From NCBI GenBank assembly GCA_963667035.1, contig OY762964.1, positions 2,688,001-2,752,000 of the forward strand: a stretch of DNA of 64,000 nucleotides. The letters are read 5' to 3'. This stretch comes from Candidatus Cloacimonadales bacterium (GTDB lineage Bacteria > Cloacimonadota > Cloacimonadia > Cloacimonadales > JAFGVF01). This document shows positions 54,278 through 64,000 of the stretch, one piece after another. The position numbers were made by a program, and so were the translations under genes. How positions within the stretch are numbered: position 1 is the first letter of the stretch; each line of letters begins with the position of its first letter. The notes below the pieces were generated by a model. That model saw only the letters and a list, made by a program, of their open reading frames with translations, ran no database searches and was not told the DNA's origin.

Positions 54278-54913
54278 GTGAGTGAATCATATACATCTAA
54301 CACTATTATTTCATATATAAACTCATTTTTGAGTTATCCCAATCCCGTTTTACCGGAAATGGAAAGGAAGCATCAGACAAGAATAAACATTCAACCTAAT
54401 ATGAGTTTACAGGGAGCTACATTATTACAGTGTCTTTTAATAATGAACAATGCAAAACATGTAATCGAGATAGGTGCATGTATAGGTTACTCGGCAATAT
54501 TCATTGGTGAAGTAATGAAAAAGAACGGTGGTAAGTTGTACACTATAGAGATTGATGAAAGATTTATCCCTGAAATCTATGAAAACATCTTATCTGCTGA
54601 TTTATACAAACAGATTGAAGTAATTAACGGAGATGCCGAGGAAAAACTTGATACAATATCCGGAGAAGCCGACTGTATCGTGTTGGATGCTAATAAACCT
54701 TTGTATCCGAGAATACTTACAAAATGTATTGATAAACTTAGGGTTGGCGGTTTTATTTTTGCAGATGATACCCTCTTTAAGCCTATGGGATTAGCAAAAA
54801 GACTCAGTGAGCCCATGGACGAATACAATAAGCTGGTTTTTAATCAAAGCAATCTGATTAGTACAATATTGCCTATAGGTGATGGAATTACTCTAAGTAT
54901 AAAAACAAGTTAA
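54278..54913 (+). CDS. SAM-dependent O-methyltransferase (COMT/YrrM-like)
   Basis: IEIGACIGYS, TIE, GDA, LDANK..Y, GG....DD, LPIGDG. Confidence 0.85.
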   Translation: MSESYTSNTIISYINSFLSYPNPVLPEMERKHQTRINIQPNMSLQGATLLQCLLIMNNAKHVIEIGACIGYSAIFIGEVMKKNGGKLYTIEIDERFIPEIYENILSADLYKQIEVINGDAEEKLDTISGEADCIVLDANKPLYPRILTKCIDKLRVGGFIFADDTLFKPMGLAKRLSEPMDEYNKLVFNQSNLISTILPIGDGITLSIKTS

Positions 54914-54923
54914 GGAGAACTAA

Positions 54924-55478
54924 ATGATAAAAAAGAGTATTTACATAATTGTTGTTATAGCTTTAGCTATTGTAATGATGGCAGCAGACAGTGATAACGA
55001 AGTTAAGAAGCTATTTAGAAAATCAAGAATTAAACAGTGTGGCGGCACTCTGATACAAAAAGAAGACGGATGGTATTTAAAAGCAGATAATAATCAGGAA
55101 CCAATGCTTTATATTGACTCTGCTGATATTGAGAACAACGAGAAAGTGAATTGGGTTAATGGGGCTACAGTAAAATTAGTAGGTCTTGCTCATCAGGAAA
55201 AGCTCTTAGTTACTACTGTCATTACTGAAACTGATACAATATTTGTAAGGGACTCTAAAGGTGATAAATATACGGAAGAAGGTCTTGCTTCAAAGTGGAG
55301 TGTCATTCCTGAAAAATGTATAGGTTGTGGACTCTGTGTAAGATTATGTCCTGTTGATGCAATAACTATGGTTAAAGGCAAAGCTTTGATTGATCAATCA
55401 AAGTGCATTAATTGCGGTAATTGTGCTCATGGTGGAATCAGAGGAAGAGGTTGTCCTACAAGTGCAATTAAGAAATGA
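54924..55478 (+). CDS. Exported protein: N-terminal beta-rich domain plus 2[4Fe-4S] ferredoxin domain (Fd1)
   Basis: Signal peptide MIKKSIYIIVVIALAIVMMA; CIGCGLCVRLCP and CINCGNC-x9-CP. Confidence 0.85.
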   Translation: MIKKSIYIIVVIALAIVMMAADSDNEVKKLFRKSRIKQCGGTLIQKEDGWYLKADNNQEPMLYIDSADIENNEKVNWVNGATVKLVGLAHQEKLLVTTVITETDTIFVRDSKGDKYTEEGLASKWSVIPEKCIGCGLCVRLCPVDAITMVKGKALIDQSKCINCGNCAHGGIRGRGCPTSAIKK

Positions 55479-56466
55479 AATTATCCTATTCATATTAGTA
55501 ACTGTTTTTTTACTATTAGTCGGATGCAACGATTCCATATCCAAACTTTCTGTTGCAAGCAATATTGCACCCGACCCAATATCCGGACTTACAACACTTA
55601 AAGTAAATGACAATTATATTCAAGTTATTTGGGATATACCTATTAGTGATTACTTGGACCATTACATGGTTTATATATGTGAGAATAGCGATGTATTGAC
55701 TTTAACTGATAACTTATATACTGATAAGCTCCTCGGATTTGCAGGAAAGAATAGACAGGGTATCACTATTAGAAATCTGCAAGCATCTACAGAGTATAAA
55801 CTTGGTGTTATTTCTGTTAACAAGTATGGAGCAAATAATGGACTTCAAGATTCAATTGTAGTTACAACTACCGACTTGCATATAAATGATACTGAAGTGC
55901 CACAAACACCGGAGTTAGTTAATATCTCAGCCCATTTAACAAAAGGTATTGATTCCGCAGCTAATACTGAGATTGAAATAGAGTTTACCCCTGGGAATGG
56001 AGAAGAGTTAATTACACCTGATATTAGGTTTTCTCCTATGCCTGCTTTTGCGAACTGGGATTCAGCTTTTCCAATCACTAATTCGGAATTATTTGTTCCT
56101 GAGGTTTTAAATGGAGAGACAGGTGTTATAAGATTTAATTTTCAAGATGCAGCTTGGCCTATACCGTTCCAAATGAATGATTTTGAGTTTATGATATTAC
56201 TTAAAAGCAAAGATGCAGAAAACAACGTATCAGAAAACTCCATAAATACTATGGGTATATTCAAAGTTGAAGTTCAATCAGGCTGTATAAAATGCTGGAA
56301 CTGCATAAATATTTGTCCTGAAAACGCTATTTCTAAATCAAGTTCAAAGGCCGTAATTGATATAACAAAATGCACCAGATGTGGCGATTGTGTGTTGAAA
56401 TGTGCAGATAAAGGTTCTGAAGTAATCTTCTTCAAGACTGAAGAAACCGGAGGCTCCAAATGGTAA
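55462..56466 (+). CDS. Lipoprotein: FN3-like domain(s) plus C-terminal 2[4Fe-4S] ferredoxin domain (Fd2)
   Basis: GTG start after GAGGAAGAGG gives MQLRNEIILFILVTVFLLLVG-C. FN3 hallmarks (W, Y, NL...TEY.L.V.SVN); CIKCWNCINICP and CTRCGDCVLKC. Confidence 0.8.
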   Translation: MQLRNEIILFILVTVFLLLVGCNDSISKLSVASNIAPDPISGLTTLKVNDNYIQVIWDIPISDYLDHYMVYICENSDVLTLTDNLYTDKLLGFAGKNRQGITIRNLQASTEYKLGVISVNKYGANNGLQDSIVVTTTDLHINDTEVPQTPELVNISAHLTKGIDSAANTEIEIEFTPGNGEELITPDIRFSPMPAFANWDSAFPITNSELFVPEVLNGETGVIRFNFQDAAWPIPFQMNDFEFMILLKSKDAENNVSENSINTMGIFKVEVQSGCIKCWNCINICPENAISKSSSKAVIDITKCTRCGDCVLKCADKGSEVIFFKTEETGGSKW

Positions 56467-56711
56467 AGAAACTGGTATTGCTTGGCTTAATACTTATAAC
56501 GATTCTTCTTGCAGTAACTATTGAAGACAAGCGTAGCCCACTGGTTCTCAAGAATAAATGCGTAGGATGTGGAGACTGTATTGAGGCATGTCCGGTTGAA
56601 GCTATTGAGCTTAAAAAAGGTAAAGCTACTATAGACAACCAAATATGTATAAATTGCGGAATATGCTTCAAAACTTGTACATACAGTGCCATCAGGAGTG
56701 AGAATGAATAA
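56460..56711 (+). CDS. Small exported or anchored 2[4Fe-4S] ferredoxin (Fd3)
   Basis: MVKKLVLLGLILITILLA leader; CVGCGDCIEACP and CINCGICFKTC; RBS GGAGG. Confidence 0.85.
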   Translation: MVKKLVLLGLILITILLAVTIEDKRSPLVLKNKCVGCGDCIEACPVEAIELKKGKATIDNQICINCGICFKTCTYSAIRSENE

Positions 56712-56946
56712 GATAGTTATCGTTCTTGTCATAATGGTTGTTGCACTTGCTATCGGTTGTGATAAAGTTACAAAGCCCGAATATAACGTTGAGAATTCAA
56801 CATGTAATGCTTGTGGTAACTGCATTGATGTATGTCCTAACGATGCTATAGAGTTTGATAAAAATGGAAAAGCAATTATAGACCAAACTAAATGTATTCA
56901 ATGTGCCAAGTGCATTCCGGTTTGCCCTCAAGGAGCGATATACTAA
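56704..56946 (+). CDS. Small lipoprotein 2[4Fe-4S] ferredoxin (Fd4)
   Basis: ATG 56704 after AGGAG; MNKIVIVLVIMVVALAIG-C lipobox; CNACGNCIDVCP and CIQCAKCIPVCP. Confidence 0.85.
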   Translation: MNKIVIVLVIMVVALAIGCDKVTKPEYNVENSTCNACGNCIDVCPNDAIEFDKNGKAIIDQTKCIQCAKCIPVCPQGAIY

Positions 56947-58154
56947 TGAAATACTTAACTATAATTATACTTTTGTTTGTCATTAGTTCCGCTTTTTCTT
57001 TTGACCTTAAAAATCTCAATGATTTCTCGATAGGATACTATAGTGTTGATGGAAAGAACTTAATGAATTCTAGGGAGAAGCTCTTCACGGACATATCTTT
57101 TAATAGCTATTTCGCCGGTGGTATTGAGCTTGACCTTTTGATCTCAGAAAATGAATATAAACAAAAGAATTTCTATGTTTATGATAGATTTAAATCATAT
57201 CTAACTTGGAACTATGAGAGCACAACTCTCTCTACTTCTTTCAGTAACACTCTTTTTGATAATGCTAAAACCAATGAGATAATTTTAACAGGTTTGTTCG
57301 ATCCGGTAATAAAACCTGTTTCAAAAAACAGTCTTACTTTTGCAGCTACACATAATCAGTGGAATTTTAACATTGATGGAGCAATCAGGTATAGGAACCT
57401 TAATTATGATTATCATCTATCTGAGGAAACAGAGCATGAGAACGACCTATTTATCGATTTAACGCTTTCAAGAGATATTATTGAGGGATTAGGAGCCTTT
57501 ACAACAATATATTATAAGAATGATTTGAATGATATACCTAATTCGGAGATTCCGGATAACTTCGAGATTAACGACCCGAGTAAATATTATAATGAACTTA
57601 CACTAGGGGGAGGAGTATACTGGAAAAAACGTTTTAGTAATAATCAAGTGATTAAAGTATCAACAGCATATCTACATAGAGACGGTGAAACAATTCCTGA
57701 TTATCTAACTCACTATTTTATAACGGATGTACGCTACCCATATTCATTATCACCACTTCTATATGGTTATATCTCAGGTATTAGCAGAGGATGTTATAAT
57801 GAACAGGACGATAAGTTTTACAGAGTTTCCAATCTTATTAGAGCTCAATTAAAGTATTCACTTAATCCTTTTGATTCTCGGGCTTATATTTGTGCCGGTT
57901 TTAAATACAATCCGGAGAACAAAACAGATAGATATTACGGGGAAGTTTCGTATCCGATTGATAGATTCTTAACTCTAAGGGTTGCCGATTATATCTCTCC
58001 TAAATATTACAATAACGTTGTTACCGGAATAGAATACTCTTTTGCAAAATACAATTCGATATATTTGGAGAACACTTATTCTATCGTCAAAAGTGATGTA
58101 CTCGCATTAGCTGATAACAATGAGTTAAGATTAGGTACAAGGATAGCATTTTAA
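56946..58154 (+). CDS. Putative outer-membrane beta-barrel protein
   Basis: ATG 56946 overlaps the Fd4 stop (TAATG). Signal peptide ending SAFS; many amphipathic Tyr/Phe-rich strands; C-terminal ELRLGTRIAF. Confidence 0.7.
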   Translation: MKYLTIIILLFVISSAFSFDLKNLNDFSIGYYSVDGKNLMNSREKLFTDISFNSYFAGGIELDLLISENEYKQKNFYVYDRFKSYLTWNYESTTLSTSFSNTLFDNAKTNEIILTGLFDPVIKPVSKNSLTFAATHNQWNFNIDGAIRYRNLNYDYHLSEETEHENDLFIDLTLSRDIIEGLGAFTTIYYKNDLNDIPNSEIPDNFEINDPSKYYNELTLGGGVYWKKRFSNNQVIKVSTAYLHRDGETIPDYLTHYFITDVRYPYSLSPLLYGYISGISRGCYNEQDDKFYRVSNLIRAQLKYSLNPFDSRAYICAGFKYNPENKTDRYYGEVSYPIDRFLTLRVADYISPKYYNNVVTGIEYSFAKYNSIYLENTYSIVKSDVLALADNNELRLGTRIAF

Positions 58155-59125
58155 TGTTTAAAACTTTCACGGAAGGATTTATTCTGGGACTAACAACCGG
58201 TACTGTGTGCTTGGTTAGCTGCACTCCCATATATCTACCTTTTATAATTTCAGAAAAACGTTCTATCAGTAAAAACTTTCTGAAAGTAATGGAAATCTCT
58301 GCAGGTAGATTCTTTTCTTACTTGTCATTTGGTGCCTTAGCAGGATGGTTAGGTGGAAATATTGCTACGATAGATAGAAATCTGTTCACGGGAATCGCCT
58401 ATATTCTTTTAACGGTTTTTATGCTTCTATCGTTCTTTAGATTAACTAGAAAAGAGAAGAGTTGCCATATACCCAAATTTGTTAATGTAACTAGAAGTGC
58501 ATTTTTATTAGGCATATTTACCGGGATTAACTTTTGTCCTTCCTTTTTAATTGCATTATCGAAAGCAATTGACTTGGCAGGTCCTTTGAGTGGAATCTTG
58601 TTATTCTTTGGTTTCTTTGTCGGCACTTCACTTTTCCTAATTCCTTTAGCATTTACCGGATTTCTTTCAAAGATGAAGCTTATGAAAGTAATTGCAAGAT
58701 ATGCTTCAATTGCAATAGCTCTCTACTTCTTATACTCAGGTATCCATAAGATAAAGGATTTTATTGTTTCATCTCAAGCCAGAATTGTAGATCCGATATC
58801 AGTTGAATACAAGTTAACTTTGTTTACTGATGATCCTAATTCTGAATTTTATAAAGTACTTTCAGATTCATTAATAGCAATTAAATCTAATCAGTTCACA
58901 TTTGTAAGTACTGATAAACTAGGAATATCAACTTTAGCATCTGTTCAGAAAGGGACAATTCTATTGATAGCTCCGAATTTGGTAAACGATACAAACATCA
59001 AAGCTATTAAAAATACTGACCATTATATCATGAATCCACAGCATTCACCAGCCGGCGTGATTAATTTCATGAGGAATTATAGTATTAAGGTTGGAAAGAA
59101 CCAATTCTTAGAATGGGAATTTTAA
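58154..59125 (+). CDS. DsbD_2 / CcdA-like six-TM protein with C-terminal soluble domain
   Basis: CLVSC in TM1 (Cys19/23), GRFFSY, GINFCP (Cys128), F..GT; TAATG coupling. Confidence 0.75.
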   Translation: MFKTFTEGFILGLTTGTVCLVSCTPIYLPFIISEKRSISKNFLKVMEISAGRFFSYLSFGALAGWLGGNIATIDRNLFTGIAYILLTVFMLLSFFRLTRKEKSCHIPKFVNVTRSAFLLGIFTGINFCPSFLIALSKAIDLAGPLSGILLFFGFFVGTSLFLIPLAFTGFLSKMKLMKVIARYASIAIALYFLYSGIHKIKDFIVSSQARIVDPISVEYKLTLFTDDPNSEFYKVLSDSLIAIKSNQFTFVSTDKLGISTLASVQKGTILLIAPNLVNDTNIKAIKNTDHYIMNPQHSPAGVINFMRNYSIKVGKNQFLEWEF

Positions 59126-59406
59126 ATACTGCCGAACTATAATGTAATGACTGTTAATTTAGACAGCCATTCATGTTTTATAATAGAGATTGAATACCAA
59201 AACTGTTTATCCTATACTGAGATTATTGAGTTTCAGATTATCCAAAAATGGGTAAATACTCAAAAAAATGGGGCAATAAATAAAAAAACTTGATTGATTT
59301 AGGTGTTATCAGAATATGATTTAAAGAAGAATTGGTGGAAAACTTGCATAACTGTATTTACATTTTATAATTAATATAATAGTTAAATAAATCTACGGAG
59401 GATTTG

Positions 59407-61008
59407 ATGCGCAAGAGCTTACTAATTGCCGTAACTCTCTTAATGCTACTTATTAGTAGCCTGTTAGCTCAGGCTAGCCCTGAAGTTGAGTTCGAGTTCC
59501 AAAGGGGAGATGGAACCGGAACACTGTTAATGAAATTCACTATTCCTGAACACTATTATCAATCATATGTTGTTGGCGATGATATGCCAATGTTCTATAT
59601 GGAGGCAAGTGCTGAAGGTTTTGAGTTTGAACCAGCTAACTATCCTAATCCTGACAATGTTAAAATCGGAGAGACAGTTAAGTATAAACATGAAGCAGTA
59701 TTATCTCAAACTTTCACTTATAATCCAGAGACAAAAGATGGTAAGATAAAAATTGCTTACGGTTATCAGTTATGTGAAGCAGGAGCTGCTTGCGAGTTAC
59801 CTATAGATGACGAAGTAACTCTTTCTTTTGCAACCGGAAAACCTATACAAAACGAAGAAGTTGTAATGGAAGAAACTATCTCTGAAGGAGATGCCGAAGA
59901 AAATCAAAAAATCATTGAAGCTTTCACAAAACTAAATGATAGATATGTTGTAAAAGGCTCAAAAACAGGATTTATTAAAGCGGAAAAGTTTATTGCTTTC
60001 CTCGAAAATCCAAGTGCAATCGGTGATTCAGGCTCAGAAGTTTCTGATAAGAAAGAAGGATTCGAAGGCAAAAGCATCTGGCTTATACTAATATCCATTT
60101 TGATCGGTGGACTTTTAATGAATCTTACACCATGTGTACTGCCAATGATACCGATAACAGTTGCTATAATCGGAGCAGGTTCACAAGGGCAATCAAAAGG
60201 CAAAGGCATAATGCTGGGGACTAGTTACGGACTCGGAATGGCAATCGCCTATGGAGCTTTAGGATTAATAGCAGCGTTAACCGGTTCTGCTTTTGGACAA
60301 CTTAACTCTTCATGGATCTTTAATGCAGTTATTGCATTAATCTTTATATTGTTAGCTCTAGCCATGTTTGATGTATTTGCAATAGACTTTTCAAAATATC
60401 AGAATCCTAACAAGAGGGCTCAACAGCGTGGTAAAGTAGCAGGAGTTTTTGTAATGGGTATCTTTGCTGCTCTATTAGCAGGAGCATGTGTTGCCCCAAT
60501 CCTCATTGCTGTTATTATTTATGCCGGGAATTTATACAGTCAGGGTAATGTTCTCGGATTGGCTCTTCCTTTCCTTCTTGGTATTGGAATGGCACTACCT
60601 TGGCCATTCTTAGGTGGAGGTATGTCTATTCTTCCGAAACCAGGTAACTGGATGAAGTGGGTAAAGATTATATTTGGTGTTTTCATACTATTTATGGCAT
60701 ATAAATATAGCTCTAATGCTTACCATATCCTCAAGCCCAAACCGGTTGTTGGAACAATATCTCAAATTGAGACAGCTATAAAAGAAAAGAAACCCATATT
60801 CTTAGATTTTACAGCGTCCTGGTGTAGTTCATGTAAAGAAATGGATAGGTCAACATTCAAAGATGATGGTGTTATTGAGACTCTTAAAAAATATGAGTTT
60901 ATTAAATACTATGCCGAAAAGCCAAGTAACTCACCAGCAAAGGAAGTTATGAATTTATTTAGTGTTAAAGGTCTTCCAACCTATATTATTTTAGAGCCTA
61001 GGGAATAG
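59407..61008 (+). CDS. dsbD: Thiol:disulfide interchange protein DsbD (three-domain)
   Basis: Signal peptide; N-domain CEAGAAC; TM domain LTPCVLPMIP and ACVAP; thioredoxin domain FTASWCSSC. Confidence 0.9.
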   Translation: MRKSLLIAVTLLMLLISSLLAQASPEVEFEFQRGDGTGTLLMKFTIPEHYYQSYVVGDDMPMFYMEASAEGFEFEPANYPNPDNVKIGETVKYKHEAVLSQTFTYNPETKDGKIKIAYGYQLCEAGAACELPIDDEVTLSFATGKPIQNEEVVMEETISEGDAEENQKIIEAFTKLNDRYVVKGSKTGFIKAEKFIAFLENPSAIGDSGSEVSDKKEGFEGKSIWLILISILIGGLLMNLTPCVLPMIPITVAIIGAGSQGQSKGKGIMLGTSYGLGMAIAYGALGLIAALTGSAFGQLNSSWIFNAVIALIFILLALAMFDVFAIDFSKYQNPNKRAQQRGKVAGVFVMGIFAALLAGACVAPILIAVIIYAGNLYSQGNVLGLALPFLLGIGMALPWPFLGGGMSILPKPGNWMKWVKIIFGVFILFMAYKYSSNAYHILKPKPVVGTISQIETAIKEKKPIFLDFTASWCSSCKEMDRSTFKDDGVIETLKKYEFIKYYAEKPSNSPAKEVMNLFSVKGLPTYIILEPRE

Positions 61009-61010
61009 AT

Positions 61011-62402
61011 ATGAAGAGATTTTCAATTATAATTGCTTTATTACTTACAATTAGTGCTTGCGAGAGATTTACAAAACCGGAACCGGAACCTACAATAACT
61101 GAAAAGGTTACCGATTACTTTGATAATTACGTTGAATCAGCTTTAAATGATATGACAGTTGACGATGTAGGTAGTATTATGGCTCTATACAGCGATGATT
61201 ACCTTAATAATGGTCTTGAAAAAACAGATATTAAACAATCATTCTTGGATTATGCTAGTCAGAATAACATTAATAACTTAACCATTTCATTTACTATTGA
61301 GAATGAAGATTCACTAAAAGTTAGCTGGTCTTTCAATAATAGTAAAAACATACCCCAGATAGATTACTTAATTCCTGATTCAACAAGTAAGTACAAGTTC
61401 TATGGAAATCAAGTATCCTCGATGCAAGATATGATATATACTTTCTTTGAAGAGGAAATCTTACCTGCAATAGAACAAATTTCAGAGTCTGATGTAAGTA
61501 GTATAATGGCATTTTATTGTGATGACTACTTAAACAATGGATCTGTAAAATCAGATGTTGAGCAAGAATATATTGATTTTTTGAGTAATGGTAATGTAGT
61601 CCAATTCTCAATGCATGTAACAATTGTTAATGAAGAGCAGATGAAAGTTAGCTGGTCTTTTTGCCAAACCGAAACGATGAAGAGAATTGACTACCTGATG
61701 GAGAATGGTGATAGTTTCTTATTCTATGGGGACCAACAACAACTTCCACCAACAGAAACAACTAAAGCTTTCATTGAAGTTCTCACAGCAACTTGGTGCC
61801 CTAACTGTCCCGAGTTAGAGCACAAGATAGAAGAAATGAAAGAAACTTATGGAAATGATTTGTTCTACGTTGAATATCACTATAACGATAACCTTAGTGG
61901 TGATTTTAGTGACATCCAAAGCTGGTATAACATATATAGTGCTCCTACCGGAGTATTGCAAGGAACCAACATATTTGTTGGCTCGGAAAGTACTACGCTT
62001 AACCAGTACAATAATATTATCAGTAGCATAACCGCAACAAATGCTGATATTGTACTTAATAATTTAGAATACACTCATGAAGGTGATAAATATAGTTTCA
62101 GCATAGATATTGATAATCCCGGTATGGTTGATACAGAAGATTTGTATTTAAGATATCTTATTGTTGAAGATACATCTTCATCACTTAACAATGCAGGGAA
62201 TCCATGCAAAAATGTAATGTTGGAACAGAATAAAATAGCATTATCCGATGTTGATTTTTATGGAACTTATGAGTTTGATCATACATTGTTAAATACTTTA
62301 CCGGAAGATGCTAAGATAATTATATTTGTTCAGACTATGCCTGAAACATTTAATGAATCAACATGTAAAATCCATAACGTAATGGAAGCAGACCTAAACT
62401 AA
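61011..62402 (+). CDS. Lipoprotein with duplicated N-terminal domain and thioredoxin-like/Omp28-like C-terminal region
   Basis: Lipobox ISAC; two ~100-aa repeats; EVLTATWCPNCP, VEYH, AP; C-terminal Ig-like part with IIIFVQ. Confidence 0.75.
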   Translation: MKRFSIIIALLLTISACERFTKPEPEPTITEKVTDYFDNYVESALNDMTVDDVGSIMALYSDDYLNNGLEKTDIKQSFLDYASQNNINNLTISFTIENEDSLKVSWSFNNSKNIPQIDYLIPDSTSKYKFYGNQVSSMQDMIYTFFEEEILPAIEQISESDVSSIMAFYCDDYLNNGSVKSDVEQEYIDFLSNGNVVQFSMHVTIVNEEQMKVSWSFCQTETMKRIDYLMENGDSFLFYGDQQQLPPTETTKAFIEVLTATWCPNCPELEHKIEEMKETYGNDLFYVEYHYNDNLSGDFSDIQSWYNIYSAPTGVLQGTNIFVGSESTTLNQYNNIISSITATNADIVLNNLEYTHEGDKYSFSIDIDNPGMVDTEDLYLRYLIVEDTSSSLNNAGNPCKNVMLEQNKIALSDVDFYGTYEFDHTLLNTLPEDAKIIIFVQTMPETFNESTCKIHNVMEADLN

Positions 62403-62413
62403 TAGGAGTAATA

Positions 62414-62935
62414 ATGAAACATAGACTTATATTAATAGCAATCGTACTTTTACTTGCCGGTTCTCTTTTTGCAGAGAAGAAGTTTGCAGATTTCAAGCTC
62501 GAAGATGTTAAAGGTAATAAAGTGTCATTAGACACTTTACTCAAAGATGGTCCTATCGTAGTTGATTTTTGGGCAAGTTGGTGTGATCCATGTAAAAAAG
62601 CTCTTCCGCATCTTGATGAGATTGATAAGAAATATGACGGTATAAAAGTTGTAGCAATCTCAATAGACTCTCCAAGAAAAATGACCCGAGCAAAAGCCTT
62701 TGTTAAAAAGAATAAATATGACTTTATTACTCTGTTTGATAGTGATCAGATGATTTCAAAAAACATGGGTGTAAAGAATATACCACATACATTTATAGTT
62801 GATAAAGATGGTACTGTTGTGTTTGAGTTTATGTCAGGTAAACCCGGAGGGGAGAAGATACTTGAAGCTGAAATCCAGAAACTTTTAGGTATTGAGACTT
62901 CTACCGAAGAAGTAGAAGAAGAAGTGGTTGAATAG
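62414..62935 (+). CDS. TlpA/ResA-family thiol-disulfide oxidoreductase
   Basis: Signal peptide; DFKLED..G, VDFWASWCDPC, IP.TFIVDK.G. Confidence 0.9.
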   Translation: MKHRLILIAIVLLLAGSLFAEKKFADFKLEDVKGNKVSLDTLLKDGPIVVDFWASWCDPCKKALPHLDEIDKKYDGIKVVAISIDSPRKMTRAKAFVKKNKYDFITLFDSDQMISKNMGVKNIPHTFIVDKDGTVVFEFMSGKPGGEKILEAEIQKLLGIETSTEEVEEEVVE

Positions 62936-62944
62936 GAGTTGTTA

Positions 62945-64000
62945 ATGAAAAAAGTTTTTACAGCTCTACTTCTTCTCATATCATTATCGATTATTCTAGC
63001 TGATGAATTTGAGTTAAGCGGAACAAATGAGATGGAAGTCATTTACAAAACGGTTGATGACTCTCTGAATACCTACTTCTACAATGAGTTAAGTCTTTTA
63101 GCTAATTACAAAGACATAGTATTCGGAATGAAATTCCTAGCTTCAATGCCTAAATATGAAAGCGATGCTCCTATTGATGAGTTAGACACAAAAGATGTAG
63201 AGGTAGAATGGGACGAAAGATACCTAACTTTTGAGAAAGATAACCTAGCACTTCATGTAGGAACAACGGAAGACTTTGTTGGTTCAGGTATGCTGTTTAG
63301 AGCTTATCGAGATGATGATGTGGATGTAGATACAAGATTAGAAGCTGCTCTTGTAAAAGCTTCAACAGATTATTTTGAGGTGAAAGGTTTATATGGTGCA
63401 ATGCCAAGCGAGGATTATGAAGGTAAAAAAGAACTTGCAGGTCTTTTTGACATACAAAGCAGTTATTTCTCTCATACGAAAATTGGAGCTTCTTATTTCG
63501 AAAATCAAAGACTTGCAACTAGTACTGAATACTCTCTTACTCAAGCTTACGGATTCCGTATGACACAGGAATGGGATTTCTTAGATTTCTACGGTGAATA
63601 CGCAAGAACCTTGAACGACGATAGCGGAATCAATGGGGAAGGTTATTATGCTAATCTAAACACATATTTCGGAGATTTTAGCATTGTCGGTACATATAAA
63701 AACTTTTGGAATATGAATTATGACCTTAATGATACTCCAACTGCCAACTACCATGAAGAAACTCTATCAGATGATTTAGCCAGTGGTGCAGATGAAGAAG
63801 GTTTCATGGGAGAGTTTGGATGGGACCCGGAAGGCTATCATCTCCTTCTAAGCTATGCAGAAGCCTGGGATTCAGATAATGAAAGAAAAATGAACGATTT
63901 CTTCGGAGCAGTTGGTAAGATGATTGGTGAAAAAGAGATTACTGCAGAATTGGGTTATTGGGAAAAAGTTAATGATGAGGCAATCTCTTGGAAAAGAGAG
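62945..64000 (+). CDS. Outer-membrane beta-barrel protein (DUF6029-like), runs off the window end
   Basis: Not in the ORF track because it has no stop in the window. ATG 62945 after AGGAG; MKKVFTALLLLISLSIILA signal; VG...FVGSGMLFRAYRD...D.RL motif; open to 64000. Confidence 0.7.
   Translation, partial: MKKVFTALLLLISLSIILADEFELSGTNEMEVIYKTVDDSLNTYFYNELSLLANYKDIVFGMKFLASMPKYESDAPIDELDTKDVEVEWDERYLTFEKDNLALHVGTTEDFVGSGMLFRAYRDDDVDVDTRLEAALVKASTDYFEVKGLYGAMPSEDYEGKKELAGLFDIQSSYFSHTKIGASYFENQRLATSTEYSLTQAYGFRMTQEWDFLDFYGEYARTLNDDSGINGEGYYANLNTYFGDFSIVGTYKNFWNMNYDLNDTPTANYHEETLSDDLASGADEEGFMGEFGWDPEGYHLLLSYAEAWDSDNERKMNDFFGAVGKMIGEKEITAELGYWEKVNDEAISWKRE

Follow-up and report, generated by a model that had tools for sequence, protein, structure and literature searches.

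Genes at the Locus

The DNA considered here, hereafter the window, is a stretch of 64,000 nucleotides from a Candidatus Cloacimonadales bacterium (contig OY762964.1, positions 2,688,001 to 2,752,000), with a guanine + cytosine (G + C) content of about 35%. Its closest protein relatives are found in metagenome-assembled genomes (MAGs) of Candidatus Cloacimonadota, e.g., Ca. Zophobacter franzmannii. At 58154..59125 on the plus strand, the window carries an open reading frame (ORF) which starts with ATG and whose product of 323 amino acids (aa) is identified by Pfam, by its homologues and by an AlphaFold2 (AF2) model as an inner-membrane protein of the DsbD_2 family with four cysteines and a soluble C-terminal domain. 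This report discusses this DsbD_2 protein and its partners. Its gene is the last of a same-strand run encoding the ferredoxin-domain protein FdA, an FN3-ferredoxin protein, the small ferredoxins FdC and FdD and a putative barrel, and its ATG shares one base with the TAA of the upstream 420-aa ORF (ttTAATGttt).

Judged by its sequence, the protein is a six-helix inner-membrane member of a four-cysteine subfamily of DsbD_2, within the DsbD/CcdA superfamily. PF13386 (DsbD_2) matches residues 9-193 (E 1e-19, 71.7 bits against a cut-off of 24.9) over profile positions 3-198 of 199, and the match was recovered again by a scan of the whole genome. PF02683 (DsbD_TM) reaches 18.3 bits, below its cut-off of 27.1, while the canonical DsbD encoded in the same window scores 153.1. 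No NCBIfam model matches the protein. Its named homologues in Cloacimonadota carry the public name 'sulfite exporter TauE/SafE family protein', to which Pfam lends no support: at E <= 0.01 only PF13386 and PF02683 were reported, and PF01925 (TauE/SafE) gave no match. A word-indexed search returned 235 homologues, the best 120 of which have lengths of 315-342 aa and align over at least 91% of the query. Among sequences of solved structures only a ribose-binding protein was matched, on the C-terminal part and without significance (E 0.81). In the titles and opening lines of abstracts, no paper was found on PF13386, the four-cysteine subfamily, operons of Sec-exported ferredoxins or the Cloacimonadota operon.

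Cysteines, Topology and the C-Terminal Domain

The protein contains four cysteines in all, C19, C23, C104 and C128. C19 and C23 form a CxxxC motif in helix 1 (C19-L-V-S-C23, codons 58208..58222, plus strand), C104 lies in a K/R-rich loop before helix 4 which is predicted to be cytoplasmic from the alignments and the loop charge (codon 58463..58465, plus strand), and C128 belongs to F127-C128-P129 in helix 4 (codons 58532..58540, plus strand), at a break between helical segments. A further motif is G51-R52-F-F-S-Y56. In alignment A1 (30 homologues, 42-79% identity), all four cysteines, G51, R52, F53, Y56 and several prolines including P129 are invariant (30/30), and 27 of the 30 proteins have exactly four cysteines. 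E34, R36, E47 and R52, invariant in the same alignment, are predicted to lie on the cytoplasmic face. In the more remote alignments A2 and A3 (35 and 55 sequences, with a subset of 18 forming alignment A4), C19, C23, C128 and R52 are still invariant and C104 is kept in at least 90%. The four-cysteine DsbD_2 subfamily is defined here by C-x3-C in helix 1, G-R-x-x-x-Y in helix 2, a cysteine before helix 4 and C-P in helix 4, and the protein of the window has all of these features. When aligned by hhalign with the canonical DsbD of the window, C19 pairs with the helix-1 cysteine of the latter, in a weak match (E 0.0035, probability 9%) that ends before helix 4; C128 itself is invariant in helix 4.

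The membrane domain comprises residues 1-204 (58154..58765, plus strand). The AF2 model (predicted local distance difference test, pLDDT, 82) shows six long helices, at residues 2-33, 38-65, 75-101, 108-140, 144-173 and 175-207, followed from about residue 208 by a well-packed α/β domain. Helix 4 is interrupted at 126-128 (segments 116-125 and 129-140), so that C128 sits at the break. The mean number of Lys + Arg over the 30 sequences is 3.3, 6.2 and 2.4 in the loops 1-2, 3-4 and 5-6 and 0.7, 1.2 and 1.0 at the N-terminus and in the loops 2-3 and 4-5. Because of these loop charges (the positive-inside rule), both termini and the C-terminal domain are predicted to face outward and C104 to face inward. 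In addition, eleven remote relatives carry, directly after helix 6, an FMN_bind domain with the [ST]GAT flavinylation motif, and flavinylated FMN_bind domains are extracytosolic according to the main text of PMC8238504. The predicted outward C-terminus agrees with this placement.

The C-terminal domain of 119 aa (58766..59122, plus strand) is an α/β sandwich of flavodoxin-like or receiver-like appearance in the model and in its structural matches. It is retained at full length in the best 120 of the 235 homologues and folds well when modelled alone (pLDDT 95.7). Residues 205-323 have no Pfam match even at E <= 10, and D238 and S239 are the only invariant residues of the domain. Its structural matches are generic, namely a LacI-family half domain (Z 7.6, root-mean-square deviation (rmsd) 3.0 Å, 94 residues aligned) and receiver domains (Z 6.2-6.6), with no thioredoxin fold among them. 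Foldseek returned nothing at E <= 0.001 for the domain, and a search of the ESM Atlas with it gave nothing usable. Foldseek on the whole model gave only fusions of membrane helices with Rossmann- or flavodoxin-like domains, none of them convincing. No CcdA or DsbD chain is among the structural matches listed, by which an unlisted family is not excluded.

An original prediction, made from the sequence alone, had pointed to the CxxxC of Cys19/Cys23, the loop Cys104, Cys128 in FCP, the GRxxSY motif and an extra soluble C-terminal domain of about 120 aa. All of these are present in the 323-aa sequence, the assignment to DsbD_2 is borne out by the Pfam scores given above, and the cysteines, whose lack of conservation had been named as grounds for rejection, are all four invariant in the 30 homologues.

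The Ferredoxin Operon and Its Conservation

The run begins with FdA, a 184-aa ferredoxin-domain protein with an N-terminal signal or anchor (54924..55478). It continues with an FN3-domain protein which has a lipobox-like leader and ends in a ferredoxin domain (55390..56466; the true start is probably downstream of 55390), and with two small 2x[4Fe-4S] ferredoxins, FdC with an N-terminal signal or anchor (56460..56711) and FdD with a lipoprotein-type signal (56704..56946). All of these are on the plus strand and match Fer4 families, the second one also fn3. The next gene (56946..58154, plus strand) encodes a signal-peptide protein of about 400 aa without a Pfam family, a putative outer-membrane barrel, whose stop codon overlaps the start of the DsbD_2 gene. 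Upstream of the run, a class-3 O-methyltransferase gene (PF01596, 81.8 bits; 54278-54913, plus strand) ends 10 bp before FdA; elsewhere an O-methyltransferase was seen at that position only in the locus of the closest relative (L001/L009).

The cluster ligands of the small ferredoxins are well conserved. The eight cysteines of FdC are invariant in 27 orthologues; among 27 orthologues of FdD, the cysteine at the end of the signal never varies, nor do seven of the eight cluster cysteines, and the remaining one is retained in at least 90%. In the 59 loci that have both proteins, the FdC leader is basic and hydrophobic, and the hydrophobic leader of FdD ends, by eye, in a cysteine in 59/59, with 42 of the 59 matching a strict lipobox pattern. 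No TatC match was found in the genome of the window (one contig, 3.10 Mb, 98.2% complete) by a search that was positive in 11 of 14 controls. The ferredoxins, if exported, would thus leave unfolded through Sec. As a rule, cofactor-bearing iron-sulfur (Fe-S) proteins are considered to fold before they are exported from the cytoplasm by the twin-arginine translocation (Tat) pathway.

The surroundings of the gene were compared in 80 loci from species-representative genomes, with L001 and L009 covering one and the same place. By label, 76 are Cloacimonadota/Cloacimonetes or Candidatus genera that presumably belong there; of the other four, two are 'uncultured bacterium', one is Delongbacteria and one Armatimonadota. 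Among the loci with at least 2.5 kb of upstream sequence, a same-strand ORF with the motif CxxCxxCxxxC lies within 3 kb upstream of the DsbD_2 gene in 64 of 68, the exceptions being L054, L056, L077 and L079. The commonest order is a large FN3-ferredoxin protein, FdC, FdD, the protein of about 400 aa and the DsbD_2 protein; the FN3-rich ferredoxin proteins reach 1720 aa in other loci. In some loci without a barrel gene (L061, L180), an FdA-like gene is directly upstream of the DsbD_2 orthologue. Downstream there is no conserved gene, and because the largest downstream family covers only 7 of 51 loci, the DsbD_2 gene is the last conserved gene of the operon.

Directly downstream in the window (59404-64000, plus strand) lies a separate cassette for envelope thiol redox reactions. 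The canonical DsbD encoded there (534 aa, PF02683 153 bits) also has DsbD_N and a thioredoxin domain. The other products are a lipoprotein-like protein of 463 aa that matches thioredoxin weakly, a TlpA/ResA-like redoxin of 173 aa and a DUF6029 protein which runs off the end of the window. The DsbD, thioredoxin and TlpA genes were considered as part of the same unit and rejected, as they are not conserved beside the orthologues.

Distribution and Variant Contexts in Cloacimonadota

In an even sample of 201 Cloacimonadota genomes, the DsbD_2 protein family (E <= 1e-20) is found in 83, one copy each, and the barrel-like protein (E <= 1e-10) in 101; 69 genomes have both, 14 the DsbD_2 protein only, 32 the barrel-like protein only and 86 neither. 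Where both are present, 63 of the 69 genomes have the two genes on one contig and strand with under 250 bp between them; in the others they are far apart (G033, G089, G170) or on different contigs (G183, G165, G065).

Seven loci with the barrel-like protein only were inspected, and four of them keep ferredoxin genes beside the barrel. L172, L174 and L177 have one or two ferredoxin genes and the barrel and nothing resembling the DsbD_2 protein. L178 has a full ferredoxin operon without it, including a 262-aa membrane protein with one ferredoxin motif, which has the size of the NapH-like genes confirmed by Pfam in other loci and is probably NapH-like. Right after this operon (L178:5710-8431) are ORFs of 142 aa and 745 aa, Fur-like and FeoB-like by N-terminal sequence only. 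In the remaining loci (L173, L175, L176), no ferredoxin adjoins the barrel homologue. At E <= 0.001, a profile of the standalone membrane module found nothing in the genomes G118, G036, G063, G031, G076, G040 and G039, all 95-99% complete, with the genome of the window (1.7e-58) as the positive control.

Loci with the DsbD_2 protein only show other contexts, and two of them (L182, L183) have no Fe-S neighbour. In L179 and L180, there is a cytoplasmic Fer4_20 + Pyr_redox_2 protein of about 830 aa (GltD/DPD-like), preceded by ORFs of 768-770 aa and 427-500 aa which are xanthine-dehydrogenase-like by N-terminal sequence only; an FdA-like gene stands between the oxidoreductase and the DsbD_2 gene in L180 only. 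L181 and L185 have a NapH-like gene and a leader-bearing polyferredoxin, and L184 a NapH-like gene alone, before the DsbD_2 gene. Pfam confirms these types of neighbour (Fer4_20/Pyr_redox_2 and NapH-like Fer4_5) in L017, L030, L039, L061, L037, L050, L053 and L066. Among the variant operons of the phylum, those with the oxidoreductase may or may not include the xanthine-dehydrogenase-like enzyme.

Two peculiar groups were also seen. One genus (L054, L056, L064, L079; G033, G044, G089, G170) has a 454-461-aa form of the protein, matched by the profile in two stretches, which looks as if it had a second copy of the C-terminal domain; in three of its four loci an ORF of about 1786 aa, β-helix/NosD-like in L054, the one scanned, lies upstream instead of ferredoxins. 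In another genus (G024, G028, G077, G142), the match of the barrel homologue crosses one in-frame TGA in all four genomes, which may reflect a recoded codon, an error or a match extended beyond the real start.

The Module Outside the Phylum

The membrane domain of the subfamily, here called the module, is by no means confined to Cloacimonadota and is found in many phyla of anaerobes. An exhaustive profile search gave 739 cluster representatives at E <= 1e-3, and the best 150 of the 739 include forms consisting of the membrane domain only (about 200 aa) as well as long fusions. Among 23 representatives scanned, the architecture DsbD_2-FMN_bind-Fer4_5 accounts for 11, in some cases with additional 4Fe-4S domains, and DsbD_2-Fer4_5 and DsbD_2-Radical_SAM for one each. 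A genome scan with A4 returned 283 stretches; the best 80 of these come from Methanosarcina, Methanospirillum, Clostridium (ljungdahlii, ragsdalei, carboxidivorans, drakei, magnum), Omnitrophota, Patescibacteria, Planctomycetota, Chloroflexota, Bacteroidota and others.

The module was recovered in the gene calls at 73 of these best 80 loci. A ferredoxin-motif gene is fused to it or lies within two same-strand genes at 39 of the 73, compared with a background of 1 in 363 among more distant genes (at least three positions off); 15 of the 73 have a radical-SAM-like gene instead and 19 neither, several of these at contig ends. Most of the ferredoxin-motif partners are NapH/MauN-like and about 390 aa long, and have Fer4_5 and a dicluster domain (Pfam, NCBIfam); they score below the NapH cut-off and are therefore relatives of NapH, not NapH itself. 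The radical SAM partner is the AmmeMemoRadiSam enzyme (TIGR04337, 372 bits against a cut-off of 220).

A three-gene module that has no annotation as a unit is exemplified by L113:4995-7267 of Clostridium carboxidivorans P7, where a DsbD_2 protein of about 211 aa is followed by a NapH/MauN-like protein of about 391 aa and a leader-bearing protein of about 150 aa without a family. The same three ORF sizes (211 to 223, 391 and 149 to 152 aa) recur in eight Clostridium loci (L109, L112, L118, L121, L128, L132 and L144 besides L113), and in about eight loci from other phyla the module is followed by two ORFs, one of about 385-400 aa and one of 150-160 aa. Its hosts are acetogenic clostridia and MAGs of Planctomycetota, Bacteroidota and Bacillota. 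The module lies beside the AmmeMemoRadiSam enzyme in L089, L092, L093, L097, L099, L106, L107, L119 and L122. These loci come from Patescibacteria, Omnitrophota and MAGs with the label Gammaproteobacteria. L089 and L106 also have Memo and AMMECR1 genes close by, and the module is fused to Fer4_5 in L089, L092 and L097.

Possible Functions

Comparative sequence analysis suggests that the DsbD_2 protein is quite possibly, though far from securely, the transmembrane redox module by which electrons enter an Fe-S system of the Cloacimonadota envelope. Reducing equivalents from cytoplasmic Fe-S proteins or flavoproteins would reach C104 on the cytoplasmic loop and would then pass through C19, C23 and C128 in the middle of the membrane, which may work as a CcdA-like thiol/disulfide or as a cysteine-bound metal centre. 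On the outer face, the flavodoxin-like C-terminal domain may dock the exported FdA, FdC and FdD, from which the path would continue to the barrel-like protein. Electrons could also flow the opposite way.

Electron entry and dedicated maturation of the ferredoxins were the two functions offered by the original prediction, and the former is favoured because the operon encodes no other conserved polytopic protein of the inner membrane, because the known members of the superfamily of the DsbD_2 protein move reducing equivalents across the membrane, because variant operons place this protein after cytoplasmic NAD(P)H-type oxidoreductases, because L178, which lacks it, has a likely NapH-like membrane Fe-S protein instead, and because other phyla fuse the module to an outward flavinylatable flavin mononucleotide (FMN) domain leading to a polyferredoxin.

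A number of observations weigh against electron entry all the same. A dithiol is not an obvious donor for low-potential ferredoxins, and the C-terminal domain has neither a cysteine nor a recognisable cofactor motif in the alignment or the structural matches. No thioredoxin-type redox partner is conserved beside the gene in 79 loci, where DsbD, thioredoxin-like and TlpA-like genes recur in at most four. As 32 of the 101 barrel-bearing genomes lack the DsbD_2 protein, it is not essential to the system; conversely, 14 genomes carry it without a detectable barrel, and the loci L182 and L183 have it without any Fe-S neighbour. The cytoplasmic radical SAM neighbour in 15 of the 73 loci of other phyla is poorly explained by a redox module. 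Moreover, in the protein P0248 (589 aa) helix 6 is followed by a fused radical SAM domain, at odds with an outside C-terminus unless the fusion is an artefact of gene calling. This fusion may be two adjacent genes read through, perhaps owing to another genetic code or an assembly error, and as evidence for a cytoplasmic C-terminus it was set aside, being a single case that equals two adjacent genes placed end to end (cf. L093).

The rival explanations draw on much of the same evidence. As a maturation factor, the protein would deliver reductant in a CcdA-like manner and keep the eight cluster cysteines of the Sec-exported apo-ferredoxins reduced for Fe-S insertion outside. Its superfamily, with both canonical cysteine positions apparently kept, its tight synteny with the ferredoxins, and the Sec and lipoprotein leaders which, together with the missing TatC match, imply cofactor insertion outside the cytoplasm, agree with this role, but four genomes (95-99% complete) have ferredoxin and barrel without a match to the DsbD_2 protein family at E <= 0.001, and no thioredoxin-like shuttle is conserved. 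In addition, the neighbours or fusion partners of the module in Clostridium, Methanosarcina, Planctomycetota, Patescibacteria and others are NapH/NosR-type polyferredoxins, FMN_bind or radical SAM proteins, not lipoprotein ferredoxins, and the clusters of NapH are cytoplasmic, which also counts against the role. Because its association is a general one, with Fe-S redox proteins that are membrane-bound or exported, the module is a poorer match for a dedicated maturation factor, which is considered unlikely; this part of the original prediction is weakened by the module in other phyla and by the loci with ferredoxin and barrel alone, while its electron-entry part fits better. Doubtful to a similar degree is a transporter with a site lined by cysteines, through which Fe2+, some other soft metal or an Fe-S cluster would pass by alternating access, either supplying iron or clusters to the exported ferredoxins or taking up metal reduced by the NapH- or FMN-type partners. 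In favour of it, the homologues bear the public TauE/SafE name, DsbD_2 lies among the small-solute and metal exporters of the LysE-type superfamily, and three mid-membrane cysteines and one at the surface, with the invariant E34, R36, E47 and R52, would suit a site for a metal or a cluster. A Tat-less genome with exported Fe-S proteins also needs iron and sulfur outside, and the NosR-like FMN/Fe-S fusions are compatible with reductive metal handling. Against transport stand the missing match to PF01925 at E <= 0.01, the loci with ferredoxin and barrel but without the protein, and the 118 neighbouring proteins scanned, which contain no heavy-metal domain and no metal-binding or metal-regulator domain apart from one Rrf2; the link of GRxxSY to metal handling which had been suggested at first thus found no support in these neighbours.

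That an unrelated housekeeping membrane protein merely happens to lie beside the ferredoxin genes is very improbable. L182 and L183 have no Fe-S neighbour and L077 has none within 3 kb upstream, but ferredoxin genes are upstream in 64 of 68 loci, the barrel gene is adjacent in 63 of the 69 genomes with both, the start codon overlaps the upstream stop codon, and the link to Fe-S proteins recurs in unrelated phyla far above the background of 1 in 363. The coupling to the ferredoxin operon is therefore well borne out, and occurrence independent of exported ferredoxins, which had been named at the outset as a refutation, was not seen outright, with 64 of the 68 loci coupled. It is also conceivable, but rather improbable, that the invariant cysteines hold or carry an Fe-S centre inside the membrane, making the protein either a relay independent of Rnf/Nqr or an exporter of iron or Fe-S clusters. 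With the relay, anaerobes that have neither quinones nor haem would possess a transmembrane wire connecting cytoplasmic polyferredoxins with exported ferredoxins or outward FMN domains; with the exporter, a Tat-less bacterium could build ferredoxins outside the cytoplasm.

If the protein supplies the ferredoxins with electrons, which is the favoured function, it would provide the inner-membrane step so far missing from a haem-free route across the envelope; if what it supplies is iron, sulfur or reductant, it would be part of an unknown route of Fe-S assembly outside the cytoplasm. Acetogens and methanogens that can be cultured (Clostridium ljungdahlii, C. carboxidivorans, Methanosarcina) also have the module next to NapH/NosR-like proteins, and the chemistry of the module is therefore directly testable in organisms that can be grown.

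Comparison with Known Systems

Within the DsbD/CcdA superfamily, the protein is set apart by two additional invariant cysteines, by a new domain predicted to face outward and by its Fe-S partners. With CcdA and the β domain of DsbD (PF02683) it shares the superfamily, six helices and a redox context in the envelope; its cysteines in helices 1 and 4 may correspond to theirs, and both of its termini are predicted to be outside, as in these proteins. It differs from them in scoring under the PF02683 cut-off, in having two further invariant cysteines (C23 and C104) and in lacking a conserved thioredoxin-like partner, and where DsbD has its thioredoxin-like γ domain, it has a cysteine-free flavodoxin-like domain. 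The mechanism of CcdA and DsbD is transmembrane thiol-disulfide electron transfer, as cited in the main text of PMC8238504, where the DsbD class is defined by PF02683 and PF13386 has 0 occurrences. In the same text (Meheust et al. 2021, PMC8238504), the flavinylated modules of the NapH-like and NosR type (PF12801, with or without PF04205) are interpreted as transmembrane electron carriers. Relatives of the membrane domain are fused to such modules or adjoin them, whereas the protein of the window itself has neither Fer4_5 nor FMN_bind.

In the Rnf and Nqr complexes, the six-helix subunits RnfA/RnfE and NqrD/NqrE are said to hold an intramembrane Fe-S centre through cysteines, on a path from cytoplasmic Fe-S through the membrane cysteine centre to the outer FMN. 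The likeness to the module consists of six helices, cysteines in helices 1 and 4 and a position between cytoplasmic Fe-S proteins and an outward covalent FMN domain. Homology to Rnf/Nqr (PF02508) was rejected at the level of sequence profiles, as hhalign of A4 against the four Rnf/Nqr subunits of the genome gave a probability of 0.1%. Structural alignment of the whole domain to RnfA/E and NqrD/E (Z 6.8-8.3, rmsd about 6 Å) is within the range of unrelated helical bundles. The likeness is therefore at most an analogy, not homology. For the operon as a whole, the comparison is with the porin-cytochrome conduits MtrCAB and Pcc, in which a chain of exported redox proteins and a dedicated outer-membrane protein, here the putative barrel, are likewise encoded together. 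In the Cloacimonadota operon, ferredoxin domains replace the multihaem cytochromes, and the inner-membrane member is a DsbD_2 protein.

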